From the NCBI GenBank assembly GCA_951406725.2, contig OX597828.1, forward strand, positions 60,822,001 through 60,886,000: DNA of 64,000 bases, in the 5' to 3' direction. The stretch's first letter is position 1. Each line of letters begins with the position of its first letter. Shown one piece after another: positions 1-63,852 of the stretch. The position numbers and the translations under genes were made by a program. The stretch comes from Octopus vulgaris. Lineage: Eukaryota. The notes below the pieces were generated by a model. The model searched no databases. It had not been told where the DNA came from and saw nothing but the letters and a program-made list of their open reading frames with translations.

Positions 1-476
1 CCGGTTTGTTAAAATACTTCGGATATCATCTGAAGAGCAAGATGGGGTTGGAGAAGAGGAGCCTGCCACAGAAAGAGTATATGGAACGTTGGAAGGATGT
101 GATGAGGAAGGTGGGTGAGAGTAACCCAGCTTAATCATCGAGGAAAGGAAAAGTCAGCTGCTGGGATTTATAGGCTGCCGGGTTCAAAATTGAAACTGGT
201 ACCTCCCATTCCTTTTCACTGTACATAACTGTGTAAAATAAAGAAATTAAAAAAAAAAGAAAACATACGCACTAAAAGTTCTCGTGATAAAGGTAAAAGT
301 AAGCCAAGGTTTCGTTTCAAGGCAAAGTAAGCCAAGTTTTCGTTCAAGTTACATAAAATTTTATTTTTGTAAATTTTTATAATTTCATTCGAACTCGCAT
401 AGCATTTTTGTAATTGTTTTGTCCTGTAATGTCCCAATTCTATGTTAGATCACTTGATCATAATAAAGATAAATTC
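1..476 (+). mobile_element. 3' end of a Tx1-clade (L1) non-LTR retrotransposon: ORF2 C-terminus to TAA at ~134, then 3' UTR
   Basis: 1-134 encodes ...FGYHLKSKMGLEKRSLPQKEYMERWKDVMRKVGESNPA*, paralogous to the ORF2 end at 4957-5073. The 3' UTR shares blocks with 5090-5130 and 5262-5312. AATAAA occurs at 237 and 462. Confidence 0.85.
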
Positions 477-722
477 ATCGAAAACCGGTGTTTTGACTCG
501 TCTAGGGACCCCTCTTTCATCTGCGTATTGAGAAGTTAGCTGCCTATTTTGTTGAGTGAGTTCGTTTTTTGTTCGTCGTCGTTTGTGTTTGCTCGTGAAT
601 TGAACAGTTATCCGTTGTGTGACAGTAATTTTTGCCCTACAGGGCTGAAAATTCTGTGTATAAACATTGTTATTACCTTCGGGGTAATTTTTTTTGAAAA
701 ATTGGTTCTCATAATTTGAGAA

Positions 723-2160
723 ATGGAGTTCGACTTGGCGTCGAGGAGCGACTTTCCCGTGATGGGAAAAGGCGAACAGAAGGATATCGAGGTTAGAAAA
801 CAGTCTTTTTCGGCCGCAGTGGGCGGAACCGTAACGGAAGTGGAATTCAAAATAGAACAGTTGTTCGAATACCGGAACTTGGTCAAAAAGGAAGGCAACG
901 AAATAAAACTGGTACCGCCGCAAGCGATATTACAGGAAATAAAGGCCAAGACAGTTGTATACAAGGTTTACAGTAACAAAGAGAAAAAAATAATGGACGT
1001 GAAGAACGAAATAGTAGAGAAGTGCTTGTCCCCGGTGTGGAACAAAATTCGCTACGTCGGTCGAGGTGCCCGCAGCGCTACCGTTGAAGCACATTTCGAC
1101 TCGGCTGATGTGGCAAGAGAGATTTCATCGATGACCTTAAAAAGTGAGGACATCATGTTACTACCTACCTATATGGGAAAAAGAACTGCGAAACTATATG
1201 TGGAAGACTTTCCAAGAGGATATGATATAATGTGGGTAGCAGCGGCGGTTCTGCACGACGTAGAGCAGAAAGTCTCAATTCTGCAGATGAAAAGGAAAGA
1301 GGAGGTAAACTGGAAGGGACAAGCGCTCGACTCCTCGTTCAAGCAGAAAATAATGTGCTAGAAAACTTACCCGATAGGGTATTTATTGAGGAGGGAATTA
1401 CAATCAGAGTGTCAGTGGAGGGGCGCAGACTTAGGTGTTTCAAATGTGGTGAAAAGGGTCACGTCCGCTCGAACTGCATAAAAAAAAAAGAAAAACAGCG
1501 AAGCCCCTCCTCAAAGTGCTTCAAACACAGAAAAAGAAAAGGCGGAAAAAGACCCCAAGACTGCGACAAGGAAGGGAATCGAAACGGAAGATAAACATGA
1601 ACAAATGGAATTTACACAGGTGACACACAAAAAGAAAAAAGAAAATACCCTGGACTCCCCTCCCCAAACAAAGAAAAAAATCAGCAAACACCGCAGAGAT
1701 ACATACAAAACAAATTCCCCAGCCCTACCCCCACGGCACTGTATTCATTGGAACACAGTTCGCCAAGCCCCTCCCCATAAAACAAGATTGGAAAAAATTG
1801 ATTAAAAAAAATGAAAAGATTGTAGCATTCGACGAGAGGAACGATAGAGTGTTTAAGTATTTAAAATTTTCAAAACTGAAATTATTCCGTAAGTCTGCAG
1901 ACACTAAGTCGACGACTCGTTTTGCAAAAATAAAGGAAGACGAGTGGAAGGAAAAAACACTCCAAGAACATTTAAAAATTAACCTTATCAGAGACGTAAC
2001 TAACGAAATACTGGAGGGCAAACTTACTATAACCCCGGCAACCACACCTACCCAGAGCCCGTTGGCAACGCCGGTTAAGAGCCCTGCAGCTACGACCACA
2101 AGGGAGGAAGAAGGGGAAGCATGCAGATTTAAACTGTCATGCTCCCTGTCCCAACCGTAA
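723..2160 (+). pseudogene. Tx1 ORF1 (gag-like nucleic-acid-binding protein), frameshifted
   Basis: ORF pieces 723-1361, 1232-1594, 1605-1805 and 1798-2160; zinc knuckle CFKCGEKGHVRSNC followed by a Lys-rich region. Confidence 0.8.
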
Positions 2161-2186
2161 GTTTATTTTTTTTTCTCTCTCCGACA

Positions 2187-5073
2187 ATGGCAAAGCTGGG
2201 TTGTGTGAATGTGCGTGGAATGGGGTCGAAATGGAAACAAATTTGTCTCCTGAACGACCTCACGACACACAGAGTGGACGTAGCTATTGTAACCGAGTCC
2301 AAGATGAACGGGAACCAAGCGTTCTCGCCTCTTCTAAATGGTTTCGAGAAATTTATTTCTCCTAGCCGAGGAGGAGGAAGGGGCGTGGCAGTCCTTATCA
2401 GGAAGAGCTTGGACTTGCAGGTAAGTACTGTCTTTCTGGACCCAGAAGGCAGGCTGGTCGTTCTGGATGTGACCCACGTAAGTAAACAGTCCTTCAGGTT
2501 GGTAGCTGTCTACGCTCCGAATGAGTGTAGGCAGTCGGGTTTTTTTCGGAATCTGGAGCACTTTTTAGTGACGTCGAAAACGGTAGACTTAGTAGGGGAC
2601 TTTAACACTGTCCTCGAAGCGCGGGTCGACAGTGTTGGCTCAACCAATAGGAAGGGGAACCCTAGCCTCAAGGGTCTACTAGAGAGCTTTGATCTAGTAG
2701 ACCTTAACTCCAAACACGAAGGTTGCAGAGTTAGAGCTAAGCTACGCGCAGGGAAACGAGAAGGTATTAACGTTGCCGGATGGGCCCGTCGAGTTGAGAG
2801 TCAGAGAGGTAACAAAGCTTCAATCAAGTCTTTAACTGACGAACAGGGACACAAGATCTATGGACAGGAGGAGATGCAAAAGTTTCTTCACCAGCATTTC
2901 GCCCGCGCGTTCGGGGGGGGGGGGGGTTCGCTGGAGCGGGGGAGGGCCTTAAAGGACTTCCTAGCCGGCGGACCGCGGCTCTCGGGGCGGGAGGTGGAAT
3001 GCTGTGAAGGAGCGATCACTCCCGCGGAGATAGAGGGGGTACTGGCCGGATGCGCCGGGGAGAAGTCGCCGGGGTAGGATGGTCTACCCTACGAGTTTTA
3101 TCAAAGTATGCCGGACTTGTTCGGGGGAATACTGGCAGGCGTCTACGCGAACTGGCAGCAGAACGGGAGAATTCCCAGTTCTGTAAGCCGGGGAGTGGTG
3201 ACGCTAATCCAGAAAGAGCCGAGCAAGGGGGATAACATTAGTAATTACAGGCCCATAACTCTACTTAATGTAGAGTTAAAGATTTTGGCCAAGGTGTTGG
3301 CAAAAAGGTTGACGACTGTCGTGGAGAAACTTGTAGGGAAAGCACAGACATGTGCAATTCCAGGCAGGTCGATCCAGGACAATCTTCACCTTATACGCTA
3401 CACCTTAGATAGGGTGGGTAAATTAACCGGCAAGGGCGGGTTAATGGTCCATTTAGACCAAAGTAAAGCGTTCGATAGGGTAGACCATAAGTACCTGGCG
3501 ACGGTCCTCGAAGCGGCTGGACTGGGCCCTGAATTTCGCGGGTGGATCTCCGCTATGTATAGCGGCATCAAGTCCACCGTCCAGATAAACGGTTACCTAA
3601 CGGAACCGTTTTCGGTCGAATGTTCAGTTCGTCAAGTGTGCCCCTTGTCACCACTTTTGTACGTGTTGGTTCTCGAGCCATTGCTGCGAAAGTTGGAGAG
3701 GCTGGGAAATAACCCGGATGAGATCGGAGGCGGGAGGACGGTTCTGCTTATGCGGATGACGTCACCCTCATCGTGTCCAATGAGGCTCAGCTACCTTGTG
3801 TAGAAGATGCTATCAGAGGATACGAGGCGGTGGCAGGAGCAAAAGTTAACAAGGACAAGTCGATTGGCTTACGCCTCGGCACCTGGAGGAGCAAGTCGAT
3901 ATCGTCCAGTGCCGTGGACACTGGACAGATGGTCCTGTTAAGTTGCTGGGAGTTTGGTTTGGGCCAGACTCCCAAACGGAGAGGAATTGGAGTGAGGTGA
4001 CGGGCAAGGTGGAGGCCATAGTACAGACCTGGTCCGGAAGGTTTCTGTCCTTGAAAGGAAGGGCGGAAGTGGTACAGATGTTTATTGCATCTGTAATCAC
4101 ATACCGCCTGACCGTTGTCCCTTGCCCCGATTCATGGCTTAGCAAGATGGAGCGAATCCTTTTCCGCCTTTTGTGAAAGGGAGGAAAGCCACTTGTGAGG
4201 CGCTCCGTTTGATGCCAGGAACCGTTAAAGGGTGGGTTAGGAATGCCTTGGTTGATGATGCGCAGACATGCGTTGAGGCTGAAGCATCTCTGGCACCACC
4301 TGGAGGGTGATAAGGTGTGGAGTCCGCTGGCAGGGGAATTTTCCCCGAGACCGGCTTCCTTAGTGAATTTTAAACCCGGTTGCATCAAAAGACGGAATCT
4401 GACTTTATGGCAAAAGGAGTGCCGACAGGCACTCACGCTGATCCACAAGGCGGGCAAGGCCGGCTGCGGAAATACCACCTCGGTATTTTATAGCAGGCTG
4501 GTAGAGGCAAAGAACGACGACGTCCTAGGAGGAGCTCTGGGGTTCGACGAGGACCAGCTTACCAACCTGTTTAAAAAGACTTTCAGGACGGGGTATTTGG
4601 ATAATTTCCAAAGATCCCTGGCCTGGCAGTGCTATAGGAATGCTTTACCTGTTCGCGAGAAGTTATCGCGGCACGGAACTTCAGTGCCACCGACATGTCC
4701 AAGATGCGGGTTGGACGATGAAACCGTCCAGCACGCTTTTGTACACTGTCGGCAGTTGTCAGACTTGATAAGTTACGCAGAACACGTGTTATCGCATCTG
4801 GGACGAGTACAGATGATACCGCCAACTGGACTCTCGAAGGAAGGTGAGGCATGTTTTCACTGCACGATTGCAGTAGTAAAAGAATGCATGTGGCGTACAA
4901 GAATGGAAGGAGTCGCAATAGGATCCTTTGTCTCAGGCCCCGGCTTGCTCACTTACTTCAGATATCATCTGAAGAGCAAAATGGGGCTGGAAAAGAAGAC
5001 CTTACCACGAGGTGTGTATGAAAAAAGATGGAAGGAAGAGGCGAAAAAGGTGGGTGTCAGAAACCCAGTTTAA
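2187..5073 (+). pseudogene. Tx1 ORF2 (APE endonuclease, reverse transcriptase, C-terminal Zn finger), with stops, frameshifts and an internal deletion
   Basis: APE motifs NVRG, VYAPN, GDFN; RT motifs KSPG*DGLP, NYRPITLLN, LDQSKAFDRVDH, SVRQVCPLSP and AYADD (after a frameshift at ~3745); GGLGMP; CPRCGLDDETVQHAFVHC. Confidence 0.9.
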
Positions 5074-5335
5074 CTATGGATGGAGAAGAGGAAAGGAAAG
5101 CTGCTGGGCCTTATAGGTTGCCGGGGTTTAAAATATATCGGTAAGATTTCAATCTAATGTAATGTTATATTAGTCAATGCAAAGGACAATTTAAATACAG
5201 TTTTTTGTATAATGAATTGTGGAAATTTTTAAACGAACCACTTGACTGTTTTTTGTATGTATGTCCTGTATTGTTCTTCTATGTACTGATTTTATAATCG
5301 TAATAAAGAATTAATCGTGAACCGGTGGTTACCGC

Positions 5336-11195: not shown

Positions 11196-11423
11196 GGCGA
11201 GCTGGCAGAAACGTTAGCACGCCGGGCGAAATGCGTAGCCGTATTTCGTCTGCCGTTACGTTCTGAGTTCAAATTCCGCCGAGGTCGTCTTTGCCTTTCA
11301 TCCTTTCGGGGTCGATAAATTAAGTACCAGTTACGCACTGGGGTCGATGTAATCGACTTAATCCGTTTGTCTGTCCTTGTTTGTCCCCTCTGTGTTTGGC
11401 CCCTTGTGGGTAGTAAAGAAATA
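11196..11423 (+). mobile_element. Octopus OK-type tRNA-derived SINE
   Basis: Head ggcgagctggcagaaacgttagc, B-box-like gagttcaaattcc, body gtcgataaattaagtaccagttacgcactgg, tail ...gtaaagaaata. Confidence 0.85.
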
Positions 11424-48905: not shown

Positions 48906-49484
48906 TTGTTCTTTACAACACCCCTCCCCAAAAGAAATCTATTGGTGTCAGATCAGGTGAACGTGGTGGCCATTCGATGCTGCCCCGTCTTCCAAACCAA
49001 CGCTTGGGAAAGGTTTGGTTATGGTTGTCTCTTACTGTCAACGCATAATGTGGAGGTGCTCCATCTTGCTGAAAGAACACTTTAGCTTTGGTTCTGAGTT
49101 GTGGTACGACCACGTAACGCAGCATTTCCAAGTAGTTCTCTCCATTTACAGTTCTATCAAAAGAAACGGTCCGATGACACCTTCTCTTGAGAGCGCACTC
49201 CAAACTATAACGCCAGGCTGGTTCGGTTGAGATTCTATGGTCAAATGGGGATTTTCATCAGCCCAGTACATGCAGTTATGCCTGTTTACATGACCAGATA
49301 ATTTGAAGCAAGCCTCATCTGACCAGATAATTTGAAGCAAGCCTCATCTGACCAGATAATTTGAAGCAAGCCTCATCTGACCAGATAATTTGAAGCAAGC
49401 CTCATCTGACCAGATGATCTTATTCAGATAGTCTGGTTGCTCATTAGCAATTTGGTCTCGCATCATTTCGCAGAATTGCAGCCG
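48906..49484 (-). mobile_element. DD41D (rosa/Visitor-like) transposase fragment
   Basis: IIWSDEACF, NRHNCMYW, FQQDGAPPHY...WPPRSPDLTPID with 41 residues between the two Ds (counted). Confidence 0.8.
49291..49415. repeat. 29-bp tandem repeat, 4.3 copies
   Basis: Identical units tgaccagataatttgaagcaagcctcatc. Confidence 0.95.
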
Positions 49485-49742
49485 TAATCGACTTAATCCG
49501 TTTGTCTGTCTTTGTTTGTCCTCTCTGTGTTTAGCCCCTTGTGAGTAGTAAAGAAATAGGTATTTCGTCTGCTGTTACGTTCTAAGTTCAAATTCCGCCG
49601 AGGTCGACTTTGCCTTTCATCCTTTCGGGGTCGATAAATTAAGTACCAGTTACGCTCTGGGATTGATGTAATCGACTTAACCCCTTTGTCCTTGTTTGTT
49701 TCCTCTATGTTTAGCCCCCTGTGGGCAATAAAGAAATAAAGA
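49485..49742 (+). mobile_element. Tandem OK-type SINE units (tail joined to a headless unit at 49558/49559)
   Basis: ...gtaaagaaata|ggtatttcgtctgctgttacgttc... Confidence 0.82.
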
Positions 49743-56359: not shown

Positions 56360-57129
56360 ACATGTATATATACCTTCATCCACATATACTCACATACACA
56401 CTGAACCACATTATGTATGTGTGTTTAGGTTTGGAAGTTGTGAAACAGAAAAGCGTGGGAAGGCATAACATGTAACTTGAAAATTAGAACATTATTCAAG
56501 AAATGCCAAACAGCTGGGGGTGAGTTTGGATTAAAAGATATTGGAGTATATGAGATTTGCAAGAAAAGATGAACTCGAGTTCGGGTTCGAATTTAATGCA
56601 ACATTTCAATTTAGCCTACACCGAATTCCTTATGGTGATTCTTAACTAATTTGGTTCTAATTACTAATTTAGTTTTAAGTTAACCTGAGGGTATATTTTT
56701 AAAAGTGTTTGATAAGCATAAGTTTCAAAGATTTCTTGTTTGGATGCATTATGGGTTAGATGTGAGTAATAATATTTTATAATTAATAGTAATGAGTTAG
56801 ATAATTAATGTTAGGATTGAATTAAAATAGGTTAAAATGTCAAGTTTACTTTTACTTCTAAATACGCACTGGTATGCCGAATTATGCACATTTGTAATTA
56901 CACAGTCCATATAATACACCTGTAAAAGTGACATCGAATTCGAGGCACGAATCCAATCACAACTTCTAATCATGCATCGTTTGTTTATAAAATGAATTCA
57001 ACTATGGACTAATAATTACACCACTGACATTTCCAAAATCACTCATAACTGAAAGCTGAACGCATATTTTGAAATGATTTTTGCTCTTGTGTTTTGTTGG
57101 TGACAGATTTATATGTATTTAAAAATTTA

Positions 57130-59567
57130 AATACAATATAAAAAAATCTAATGGAATTAACAATACAAAGACAATACAAATGAAGCGATGATCAGGCCAC
57201 GCTCCGACCCCACAATCCCCGATCTACCGCTGGTACCTTTTTCTTCCTTTTTTTCCCCGTCTGTTCAAACGGTTCCTTGCACGCACAACACTCGTGCAAC
57301 ATGCTTCCATCTCTTTTGGAACGTACACTCTTCTCCAGCCACAGCTTCCTTTTAAAATGAAAAGAAAAAAAAATGATCGTAAATTGTGGCCATAGATAAA
57401 GTTGCCTGACTTAATTCCTTTTATCCTAGTCTTCCATACTGCCTCTTTTGCTATTGCTACAACTGTGAGAAAACAATTCTTACCTTCGTTCGTTAAAACT
57501 CCCGGTGGGTCAATTTTTATAATTGACTCAGTCGACAGCTGTACTCTTCCTTCGCCGGACAACAGGTGTTCAGCATAAGCCCACATTTCAGTTTTCTCCG
57601 TACACTAAACAATAGCGTGAGGGACGGTTTCCCCCACACACCTTGGACAGGTCGGCGACTGACGCTTACCGTGTCTTGCGAGCTTATCCCAAACGGGCAA
57701 GATACCTCTGCCGCATTGCCAGGTTAAGGAGTTTCGGAAGTTGTCCAACGTTCTCAACCCGAATGTACGGTGAAACAGGCTGTCCAGTTGAATAAATCCG
57801 AGACCTAGTGTCGCCCCCAAGCCATCGTCGCATTCAGACTCTACCAACCCACTATATAAAATCCATGTGGACACCCACCACTGGCGTTGCCCGAGCGCCT
57901 GAATAGCAGGAGGGCCTTACGGCACTCTTTACGCCACTCACTCGACCTCGGTCTACGAGAACCCCAGGCTTCCTGTCCGTAAAAAGTTTTGAACTCGGGG
58001 AACATTTGTCTGGCCAGCGGAGACCACACCCGTTCACTATCCAGGAGAATCCAAAGGTGCCTCGACCTCAACGCATGTCTGCGAATCGTTAAACAAGGCA
58101 TCCCTAAACCTCCCTTTAAAAGCTTTCGACAGCAGACAGAGCGTTTCACAATTGGCGACCTGCCCTTCTACATAAAGCGAAAGAGCTGTCTCTCCAACCT
58201 GATCAACCACGAATCCGGACAGGGTACGACGGTCACGCGGTAGGTAATGACCGATGCAATAAACACATTGGCCACCTCCGCCCTCCCCTTCAGGGATAGC
58301 CACCGCCAAGACCAGGTCTTGACTACTGCAGCCACCCTGCTCAATATCTCCGTCAAGTTCTTCTCTATCTGGAGGCCTGGTCCAAACCAAACTCCCAGCA
58401 ACTTAACCAGTCCCTCCGCCCAGCGCCCAACAACGCTTTCCGAAGGCATCGACTTGCCAATCCAGGTTAATCTTTGCTCCTGCCACCTCCTCGTAAGCCA
58501 CAATAGTCTTACCCACTTCACGTTGGCGTGCTACTGAGGTTACGCTGATAGTGATATCATCCGCGTAAGCCGTAACAAACTCCTCTAGACCTGGTTCTCT
58601 CGGGATGCCACTCAACCTTCACAGAAGGGACTCGAGAGCCATCACATACAAAAGTGGTGAGAGCGGACATCCTTGACGAACCGAGCGTTTGATGCAGAAC
58701 GGCTTCGAAAGGAAACCGTTCACCCGAACTATCGAGTCAATGTTGTGTTACAAAGCGATAAACCACCTGAGGAAGCCAAGGCCCAGGTCTAACCGCGCTA
58801 TCACAGTCGCCAGGTATCGATGGTCAACCCTATCAAAAGCTTTAGACTGGTCTAAATGTACCAATGCTCCACCTTTGCCAGATTTATTACCAACCCTCTC
58901 TATGGTATAGCGAATAAGATGGAGGATATCCTGAATGGTTCTGCCTGGGATGGCACATGTTTGTGCCTCCCCGACAATACCATTCGCGACGCGCCAACCT
59001 TTTTGTTAAGACCTTGGACAAAATCTTCACTTCTGCGTTTAACAGAGTGATGGGCCTGAAATTCTCTATAACGTCCCCCTTGTCCGGGTCCTTTCTGACC
59101 AACGTCACTACTCCCCGGCGCACAGATCTGAGGATAAACCAATTCTGTTGCCAGTTCGCATACACGTCAGCCAGTAGTTGCCCGAACAAGTCTGGCATAC
59201 ATTTATACATCTCGTACGGAAGACCATCAAATCCCGGCGACTTACCCGCTTTACAGTCTTCTTATTGGTGTTCGTAACTCTTGGTAATGTTGGAAACTTG
59301 CTTTCCGATAAATCAGAAACGTTGACAAAAATTAAGCTTTCTATTTTCTTTGCTTCTCTTTGAGTTGATGATTTGTCCCCCGACGAAGAACACGAACTTT
59401 TCGGAATCTTGCCGGCAATTAATGTTTTCCCCCACAGGGGAAAACCGCAGATAGCTTTCGAACGAAAACTATACTACAATTTTTCAACAATAAGTCCAAC
59501 AATAGGCACAACAAGAGATATAACAATTAACAGAAACTTACGAACACACTCCAACAATAAATTTTCA
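57130..59567 (-). mobile_element. Second Tx1-clade LINE family: ORF2 RT/C-terminus (57260-59255), probably joined to its 5' UTR (59256-59567) by a large deletion
   Basis: GKSPGFDGLPYE, NFRPITLLN, LDQSKAFDRVDH, SVRQGCPLSP, AYADD, LSLKGRAEV, GGLGMP, CPRC. The 59400-59567 minus strand weakly resembles the 5' UTR at 590-775. Confidence 0.82.
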
Positions 59568-59588
59568 GTAACAGACAGACGAAATACC

Positions 59589-59820
59589 TATTTCTTTATT
59601 ACCCACAAGGGGCTAAGCACAGAGGGGACAAACGAGGACAGACAAACGGATTAAGTCGATTACATCGACACCAGTGCGTAACTGGTACTTATTTAATCGA
59701 CCCCGAAAGGATGAAAGGCAAAGTCGACCTCGGCGGAATTTGAACTCAGAACGTAACGGCAGACGAAATACCGCTAAGCATTTCGCCCGGCGTGCTAACG
59801 ATTCTGCCAGCTCACCGCCC
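59589..59820 (-). mobile_element. OK-type SINE
   Basis: Same head, body and tail as 11196-11423. Confidence 0.88.
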
Positions 59821-59974
59821 TACCAGATTTACATATATTAATTAATATGAGAGCTATGTAGGACTCATAAGTGACAAGGCAAAAAGAGAACGAAAAAGAA
59901 AGCAATTTCATCACACTTTTAAGACGCTCTAACAACTCTCTGCCAATCTCTCACGCTAATGATAATAATAATTC

Positions 59975-60180
59975 CTTCTAATTTTGGTACAAAGCCTGCA
60001 ATTTTAGAAAGACAGGTTAGTCGTTTGCATTGACACCAGTACGTAACTGGTACGTTATTTTATCGACCGCGAAAGGATGAAGGTGAAGTTGAGTTCGGTG
60101 GTAATTCAACTCAGAAAGTAAAGAGCTGGAAGACATGCCATTATGCATTTTGTCCGACGTGCCAACTATTCTGCCAGAAT
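59975..60180 (-). mobile_element. Older OK-type SINE variant
   Basis: Diverged ctggcagaatagttggcacgtcggac..; gtcgataaaataacgtaccag. Confidence 0.6.
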
Positions 60181-60269: not shown

Positions 60270-61310
60270 AATTAATAACAAGAGTTAATTAACAAAAGAA
60301 TTAAAACAAGTGTTCCCAATAGGGAGAAATGTCACCTTGGATCAACCAAGGAACCCTACAGAACTCGAGTCACCTGCTGACCAAGAGTATTATGGCACGT
60401 GACTCTCTCTTCGTACTTTTCAGCCTACAGGTATATGCTTCAAGTAGGTTCATATGCTCGGACCATTCTCGCTACATTCACCCACCATTTTACAAGTTTA
60501 TTGCGGTGGAACAGCACCTCCTTCTCCATTCTCACTTTCCTTTCCAAGTGAAACTTGAAAAAGGAGAGTCTCTGTTTCCTGTCGTTTCAGCCGCAACTAC
60601 CATCAACATCTTCCGCCATACCCACCGAAGGGATGAAATGTGCCTGCATTTCCATGTCAAAGGAAGGCATTGGGAAAATCTTCACAATGGATTCAGTTGG
60701 TAACTGGATCCTTCCTACATGTAATAGCATATATTCAATATCAATCCTCACGTCAGCAATGCTCGAGCATTATATGCGCGCGCTTTTTCTTCAGAATGCT
60801 ATGGCAGGAGTTCTTAATGGTGGTTTAATCAACTGATCGAAAGTAGTGAGCACCTGATGGCACTCTACGAGCCAAGCATCCTGCTTCGCTCTCCGCTTGA
60901 TCCCGGAGTTGTACCTCTGTCAAAGAAACGAATTGTGGAAAAGCGTGTCTAGCAAACGGCGATTACTCTTACTCACCAACAAAGAAAGGATGGAGGTGTC
61001 GCAGCCTCAGCGCGCATCTGTGCTTCATTAGTTACTGGATACCCACTCCTCCGCACAGTGGAAGTTGACGACAAATCAACCGTCTGACCAGTGGAACACT
61101 TCCCTTCAACAGAAAGCGGAAATGCAAGTATTCCCACGGAGCGTGGTAAGGCACGATGGTTAAGCGTTAATAGATCACAGAAGCGATGTAGACATTACTC
61201 ACCTCTACTCGACCATTCCCCACCACTGCTCATCCGTCCAGCACCCCATGACGCAATTCGGTGGATTGGACCAGCCCCTCTATGTGCTCAGTTACATGTC
61301 CAGTGACTTG
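60270..61310 (-). mobile_element. Highly degenerate Tx1-like ORF2 C-terminal fragment
   Basis: Minus strand reads GVGIQ*LMKHRCALRLRHL, EYMLLHVGRIQLPTESIVKI and FHLERKVRMEKE, each paralleling Tx1 blocks elsewhere in the window. Confidence 0.65.
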
Positions 61311-63487: not shown

Positions 63488-63852
63488 AAGTCTTTCTGCT
63501 ATAGGCACAAGGTTTGAAATTGTTGGGGAGGGGACTAGTCGATTACCCCGAAAAGGTGAAAGGCAAAATCGACCTCGGCGAAATTTGAACTAAGGATGTG
63601 AAGACGGGTGAAATACCTATTTCTTTACTACCCACAAGGGGCTAAACACAGAGGGGACATACAAGGACAGACAAAATTGGATTAAGTCGATTATATCGAC
63701 CCCAGTGCGTAACTGGTACTTATTTAATCGACCCCGACAGGATGAATGGCAAAGTCGACCTCGGCGGAATTTGAACTCAGAACGTAGCGACAGACGAAAT
63801 ACTGCTAAGCATTTCGCCCGGCGTGCTAACGTTTCTGCCAGCTCGCCGCCTT
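63488..63852 (-). mobile_element. Composite OK-type SINE: complete unit 63618-63852 joined to a headless older unit 63488-63617
   Basis: Minus-strand junction ...gtaaagaaata|ggtatttcacccgtc; flanked by (TAA)n. Confidence 0.82.

Follow-up and report, generated by a model that had tools for sequence, protein, structure and literature searches.

A Tx1-type LINE family occupies a fixed position in the head of an octopus SINE with which it shares its 3' tail

Zepp-type self-insertion belongs to the background against which nested retrotransposons of the kind described here have to be viewed. The closest described system is crocodilian, in which Tx1-Mar and SINEU-3 have a common target, a Mariner DNA transposon (Kojima 2015, PMC4494074). 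In the accessible text of that report, the crocodilian system resembles the octopus system in that a Tx1 element and a SINE use one repeat target, tandem SINEs sandwich the duplication, and some Tx1 copies have a SINE-type head. However, the crocodilian target is a third element, whereas the octopus target lies inside the SINE that appears to be mobilised, and the head captured by the octopus LINE is the sequence upstream of the target. In addition, the octopus LINE and SINE share their tail, whereas the crocodilian study, in the same text, found no LINE with a 3' end like that of SINEU-1. Tx1L in Tx1D (Xenopus), Keno, Kibi, and Koshi are similar in being APE-type Tx1 elements with fixed repeat targets, and the targets listed in the available sections of PMC4494074 are DNA transposons, LTR elements, snRNA and 5S genes, satellites, and microsatellites, with no SINE or target-containing passenger named there.

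A process by which incoming cDNA merges with its target has been proposed for R2, where transcripts that retain 28S sequence from upstream of the insertion yield cDNA that pairs with that part of the target (Eickbush et al. 2013, PMC3774820). According to the excerpted part of that paper, R2 is comparable to the octopus system in its uniform 5' junctions, propagating junction variants, and minority of direct duplications. It differs in its restriction-like endonuclease, its rDNA target, and its ribozyme-cut RNA, whereas the octopus Tx1 has an APE endonuclease and a dispersed SINE target. SINE multimers and SINE-derived satellites, which are frequent in some genomes, likewise consist of tandem SINE units (Vassetzky et al. 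2023, PMC10702118, in extract). However, the multimers, satellites, and dimeric SINEs (Alu) treated in those extracts are full-length multimers, fixed dimer masters, or recombination-grown arrays, whereas the unit boundary in octopus is the LINE insertion site in the head.

The tRNA-derived octopus SINEs OK, OR1, and OR2 were described by Ohshima and Okada (1994), as cited in the portions of PMC3531059 and PMC4758252 at hand. The SINE studied here resembles them in its length of ~234 nt and its A- and B-box-like motifs (read by eye), and the name OK is a provisional label given to it earlier. Tx1 appears once, in a row of a table, in the available part of a paper on O. vulgaris repeats (PMC13282606). 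No report of a LINE targeting the SINE that it mobilises, or of this octopus system, was found in the openly accessible literature searched.

The window analysed here is a 64,000-nt stretch of the O. vulgaris genome (contig OX597828.1, positions 60,822,001 to 60,886,000 of the forward strand), and unprefixed coordinates are positions within it. A preliminary description, made from the sequence alone, had reported three places at which a SINE tail ending in AAGAAATA joins an identical internal head position, GGTATTTC. All three junctions were found, at 49558/9 on the plus strand and at 59589/8 and 63618/7 on the minus strand. A 17-mer spanning the tail and the head site had 52,829 exact matches in the 2.8-Gb genome (227 contigs) versus 2 for the reversed control, a count far above chance. 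Exact SINE tails numbered 143,952 genome-wide; 45,643 of these (32%) run directly into the head site, and about two thirds are off-site. One off-site insertion within the window, at 11196-11423 on the plus strand, is a solitary copy of this SINE surrounded by an (AT)n tract.

At the plus-strand locus, comparison of sequences within the window identified a 5'-truncated SINE, consisting of the tail part only and without a head upstream (49484-49558), followed by a SINE unit that begins at the target site (49559-49738). A short tandem repeat with a 29-nt unit lies just before this array, at 49291-49418. One of the minus-strand loci comprises a full SINE with a Tx1-type tail (63618-63852) and, downstream, an older-type SINE unit that begins at the target site and has a different tail (63488-63617). 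The earlier assignment of the downstream unit within 63488-63852 to an older subfamily holds for 63488-63617, as do the different tail and the lack of a separate head noted then.

The remaining locus, at 57104-59838 on the minus strand, is a SINE-Tx1 composite, for which the order of parts had been given correctly. The 5' part of the SINE head, with the A-box-like motif and the 5' arm of a strong hairpin (59773-59821), is followed by the SINE's own 16-nt copy of the target site, located between the A-box-like and B-box-like motifs (59757-59772), the SINE body, with the B-box-like motif and the central part (59641-59756), and the SINE tail, the last ~45 nt of which are homologous to Tx1 3' ends (59589-59640). 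A second target-site copy (59573-59588) then separates the SINE tail from the Tx1 5' end. The site is duplicated as previously described, but over about 16 nt rather than ~21 nt. The GTTAC that comes next already belongs to Tx1, as its 5' end, so that 16 nt of site and the start of Tx1 replace the shared 21-nt duplication proposed for this locus. The adjoining region, 59256-59570, corresponds to the 5' terminus of a Tx1 family with other copies in the genome. The identification of 59256-59567 as Tx1 5' sequence was therefore right, but the region is not 5' UTR alone, since it contains the 5' UTR (59408-59572, inner end about 59408) and an N-terminal remnant of ORF1 comprising the first ~50 codons (59259-59407). 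This remnant ends at an internal deletion of 2.2-2.5 kb, which joins the start of ORF1 to the RT region at 59258, and beyond the deletion lie a decayed ORF2, from RT to the C-terminus, and most of the 3' UTR (57119-59258). The copy ends at 57119-57122, and no site copy or SINE body follows it because some 90 nt at the 3' end of the family sequence are missing from it. The locus therefore shows the 5' junction only.

The whole composite is bracketed by a 15-bp repeat (5' copy, 59824-59838; 3' copy, 57104-57118; 13/15 match, equalled by 0.2% of random window stretches), which is either an old duplication of the host SINE left after deletion or the mark of a composite copied whole. An older SINE copy, ~79% identical, lies 200 bp upstream of the composite (60019-60177, minus strand), and a fragment of a more distant RT-like element is present at 61011-61217 on the minus strand (53% to the query over ~70 aa).

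ORF2 of the better copies of the Tx1 family encodes APE (Pfam PF03372) and then RT (PF00078), with catalytic motifs present, and ORF1 of one copy (L146) encodes a CCHC zinc knuckle (PF00098). ORF2 aligned to human L1 ORF2p (residues 6-860, E 4.5e-64), and the nearest named homolog was 'Transposon TX1 uncharacterized 149 kDa protein' (E 2e-91, 30%). In an RT tree of 45 rows, made up solely of 15 genomic RT regions and 30 homologs, the site-targeting copies formed one clade (100/99), and its sister was a family that has the tail in common but does not use the site. Young copies are ~98% identical and have long ORFs. A tandem duplication of 6.45 kb at G000:C3:153.11 Mb (L151/L152) includes a whole Tx1-in-SINE locus with identical flanks.

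Tabulation of the 3' flanks, which the preliminary description had proposed, showed that they are not random. The tail-only pattern had 110 exact matches genome-wide, and among the first 30 of these (L132 and L133 being one tandem duplicate) 29 run into the site and 28 into the SINE body, with the junction position base-exact in 29/30. When copies were collected by similarity, the site directly followed the 3' end in 26/29, and the three exceptions were one off-site copy, one copy without the tail end, and one deletion across the junction. One flank type thus far exceeds the >20% of copies by which target specificity is judged in the accessible text of PMC4494074. At the 5' end, a SINE head or tail plus the site was directly upstream in 28/29 other copies among the best copies fetched. 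Copies of the 16-nt site are present on both sides of Tx1, and nested SINEs have a duplication of 15-19 bp at the same site, which is located at the loop of a strong hairpin in the SINE head (z=-4.3). Two Tx1 copies (L081 and L088) are in a non-SINE look-alike of the site.

The host SINE copies under Tx1 are independent. Tx1 copies that are mostly 97-98% identical lie in SINEs of both the new-tail and the old-tail subfamilies, and the outer duplications of the host SINE are kept around the Tx1-bearing loci L145 and L156. Mean identity among 18 young copies was 0.969 for the last 400 nt of Tx1 versus 0.914 for the next 100 nt of SINE, and among 23 older copies the corresponding values were 0.899 and 0.843. 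The two identities correlate (rho 0.51 for young and 0.16 for older copies, over non-independent pairs that include one duplicate), which could be caused by shared age or partial co-copying and is also predicted by a composite-master model. In 5'-truncated Tx1 copies, no SINE head was found upstream of 12 breaks within 1.5 kb, and these breaks are indistinguishable from later insertions or deletions. No empty allele was seen: at L156, a locus with a young Tx1, contigs of four public runs end where they reach the SINE, and the skips derive from other SINE copies.

SINEs are nested in SINEs at the same position. Structures in which a remnant of the site precedes a full new head had 227 exact matches genome-wide (control, 0). 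Thirty of these loci were fetched and one was dropped as overlapping; the site was present on both sides of the insert in 20 of the 29 inspected, and in the other 9 the site copy directly after the inserted tail was absent or unscorable. Site copies at the same locus had 1.25 mismatches per 15 positions, versus 2.74 across loci (permutation p=5e-5) and 2.4 against the insert's own site. The length of the duplication, calculated as the spacer minus the two A's that open the head, was 15-19 bp with a mode of 16. These duplications are true and locus-specific. Off-site SINE monomers had duplications of similar size, and 7/21 start with GGT.

The units of the arrays differ in type. Among 381 units from the fetched loci, in which the search strategy favored new tails, old-type units came after a new tail 46 times and before the site 0 times; the exact old-tail junction pattern had 4 matches genome-wide, a figure backed by the in-sample count. 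Old last units were as diverse as free old copies (0.183 versus 0.185; first units, 0.11), and no age gradient was found among new-type units (first versus last unit, p=0.68). The downstream units come from several subfamilies and equal free copies in diversity, so there can be no single dimer master. The concern, raised at the outset, that the junction might be a fixed part of one dimeric SINE master is answered by these subfamilies and by the locus-specific duplications. Rolling-circle copying of a circular SINE RNA was dropped because the units of dimers differ in subfamily.

Some junctions stem from secondary copying. As judged by eye, middle units are mosaic in L015/016 and L023/024, and private variants are common to L001-003. 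At L262 a trimer was inserted as one piece, and the longest T run in the SINE unit is 3. A second fixed junction, from the SINE tail to head position ~16 in the A-box region, had 4,751 exact matches genome-wide (control, 0; loci L251-L270). L262 has a 14-nt remnant plus a full head at this junction, as expected of a second target site, and no LINE with the flank of this junction was found. At G000:C6:27514190-27514660 there is a tandem array of SINE head and site with a 72-nt period, which is likely a repeated head-only duplication.

Most arrays have one head only, and no leftover head was found in the 16 full-length young Tx1 copies. One head variant occurred in 14 of these 16 copies versus 4/30 random heads, and their 5' site copies were as distant from the local 3' copy as from those of other loci (1.63 versus 1.62, p=0.63). 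The shared head variant and the nonlocal 5' site copy suggest that the LINE RNA carries a SINE head. Contigs from runs only presumed to be RNA were set aside as evidence; one of them (X17) spans the head and the Tx1 5' UTR, and two start inside the head. Where an array ends in an old unit, its head resembles the new type (n=10; 0.096 versus 0.207 for 35 old heads, p=6.5e-4; versus 30 new heads, p=0.36). The head variants of Tx1 and these new-type heads support the homology-assisted 5' junction that had been suggested for the window. The head variant shared by the young Tx1 copies also occurs in L147, a young copy truncated at its 5' end, and this is as compatible with a preference for certain targets as with replacement. 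Head capture has a second case in an older Tx1 subfamily, whose copies at many unrelated loci (L033-L039, L049, L059, and L091) have a distinct, mutated form of the SINE head. Since remnants are rare (227 versus 45,643, from patterns of unequal strictness), head replacement requires a very efficient seamless 5' junction.

Alignment of three SINE tails and four Tx1 tails showed that the LINE and the SINE share ~45 nt. The SINE tail matches related, non-site Tx1 families better still, and 0/30 of the fetched copies of those families are on the site. These tail matches make it likely that several Tx1 families move the SINE, in agreement with two thirds of the tails being off-site. With off-site tails and sister Tx1 families that insert elsewhere, any of several LINE families may have moved a given SINE copy. 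The targeting family is small, with 110 exact tails versus 45,643 SINE junctions. Among copies of the sister families with a SINE-like tail (L221-L250), small groups share 3' flanks (L222/L223/L247, L233/L235/L239, and L230/L236), hinting at further targets in other repeats. The SINE head gave no Rfam tRNA match and no ARAGORN gene, and tail folding revealed no significant structure (z 0.89 and 0.12). The proposal that a Tx1 targets and also mobilises this SINE to give self-nesting arrays is supported, with three qualifications: this Tx1 is not the only partner of the SINE, as related families with the same tail are never on the site in the 30 copies fetched; only about a third of exact tails are on-site; and some junctions are secondary.

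Our preferred explanation, to which we give a probability of roughly 0.87, is that a Tx1 family fixed in the SINE head likely nicks the site and copies both its own RNA and that of the SINE there, by way of the shared 3' tail. The position is fixed, the orientation is the same, the tail is shared, the site is duplicated, the hosts are independent, and young Tx1 copies carry the head. The APE endonuclease would nick the bottom strand at the start of GGTATTTC, and the ORF2 protein would bind the shared tail and prime reverse transcription at the nick. Priming is probably helped by pairing with read-through RNA, because element-linked bases recur at the 3' junction. With a SINE head at its end, the incoming cDNA could then anneal to the host head and replace it. 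Such replacement, as proposed for R2 RNAs with upstream 28S, would produce seamless head-(body-tail-site)n arrays, and in the rare failures part of the old head would persist beside a complete new SINE. Every insertion would recreate the site, and therefore the same loci would be hit again; arrays may also be lengthened by unequal exchange and be copied whole. If Tx1 copies SINE RNA into the SINE head, the SINE is at once passenger and landing pad. Since the site lies between the A-box-like and B-box-like motifs, insertion of the LINE would split the host promoter and insertion of a SINE would rebuild it.

Other explanations have to be weighed against this one. It is possible that targeting is real and set mainly by RNA-primer pairing, with a loosely specific nick used wherever the read-through 3' end (tail plus GGUAUUUC) pairs. 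The base after the Tx1 tail tracks subfamily (C in young and G in older copies), GGTA follows 18/91 off-site SINE monomers, and sister Tx1 families with the same tail and other flanks have other preferences, all as such pairing would predict. However, pairing as the main determinant is unlikely given the base-exact position in 29/30 Tx1 copies and the established rule that targeting by Tx1 is set by the endonuclease (PMC4494074, accessible text). Moreover, the first bases duplicated in the nested SINEs L282, L287, and L295 are locus-specific (A, A, and C) and therefore derive from the target. Primer pairing is compatible with the preferred explanation, and the two are not exclusive. The same odds are given to the suggestion that most seamless junctions are second-generation, arising when a few nested loci were transcribed through and retrotransposed whole or underwent unequal exchange, with primary insertions a minority. 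Read-through is made plausible by the lack of any T run over 3 in the SINE, and whole copying by the one-piece trimer at L262, the headless, 5'-truncated array at 49484, the mosaic middle units and shared private variants seen by eye, and the single 15-bp repeat that brackets the window composite; new-type heads on arrays ending in old units would fit as well. However, very many masters would be needed to account for old last units that equal free old copies in diversity. In addition, all 16 of the young full-length Tx1 copies have seamless junctions although their hosts differ, and a site-specific insertion would still be required to start the process.

Far less probable than either is the absence of any targeting, with the junction explained by a fixed dimeric SINE master or by an RT template jump at the head hairpin and with Tx1 merely carrying pieces of the SINE at both ends. 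The location of the site at the loop of a strong hairpin and the SINE head carried by young Tx1 copies would be in keeping with this. However, it is already largely refuted by the locus-specific duplications around nested SINEs, the mixture of old and new host SINEs that follow Tx1 copies of 97-98% identity, and the outer duplications of the host SINE kept at L145 and L156.

Extended beyond the insertion step, the preferred explanation describes a closed loop, which we regard as reasonably probable. A Tx1 lineage would have gained specificity for the Pol III head of the SINE that it mobilises and captured that head as its own 5' end; its cDNA would overwrite the target head, and up to a third of the main SINE tails would lie in nested arrays. 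Sister lineages would have radiated onto other repeats, and there is possibly a second site in the same head.

The window also contains a second Tx1 family that is site-specific (474-5310, plus strand, with the 3' end of another copy at 1-470; genomic loci L191-L220 and L331-L342). In 30/30 best copies the sequence continues at one position, within a few nucleotides, into a motif of a non-SINE-like repeat of roughly 450 bp; exceptions in this family are one copy that continues into another Tx1 5' end, one diverged variant, and one short deletion. Ten full-length copies have locus-specific duplications of about 14-16 bp, and the ~450-bp target repeat often carries inverted duplicates.

The nested structure occurs more than 45,000 times, and repeat libraries likely file it as many SINE families or dimers, which affects the dating and counting of repeats. 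The young Tx1 copies provide one testable system for APE target switching, for the share of RNA-primer pairing, and for whether an R2-type heteroduplex sets the 5' junctions of an APE-type element; sister Tx1 families with a common tail and different targets also bear on APE target switching. The target choice of Tx1 elements is extended to a SINE that is also a passenger, in a feedback in which every insertion would make more targets and land in expendable DNA.
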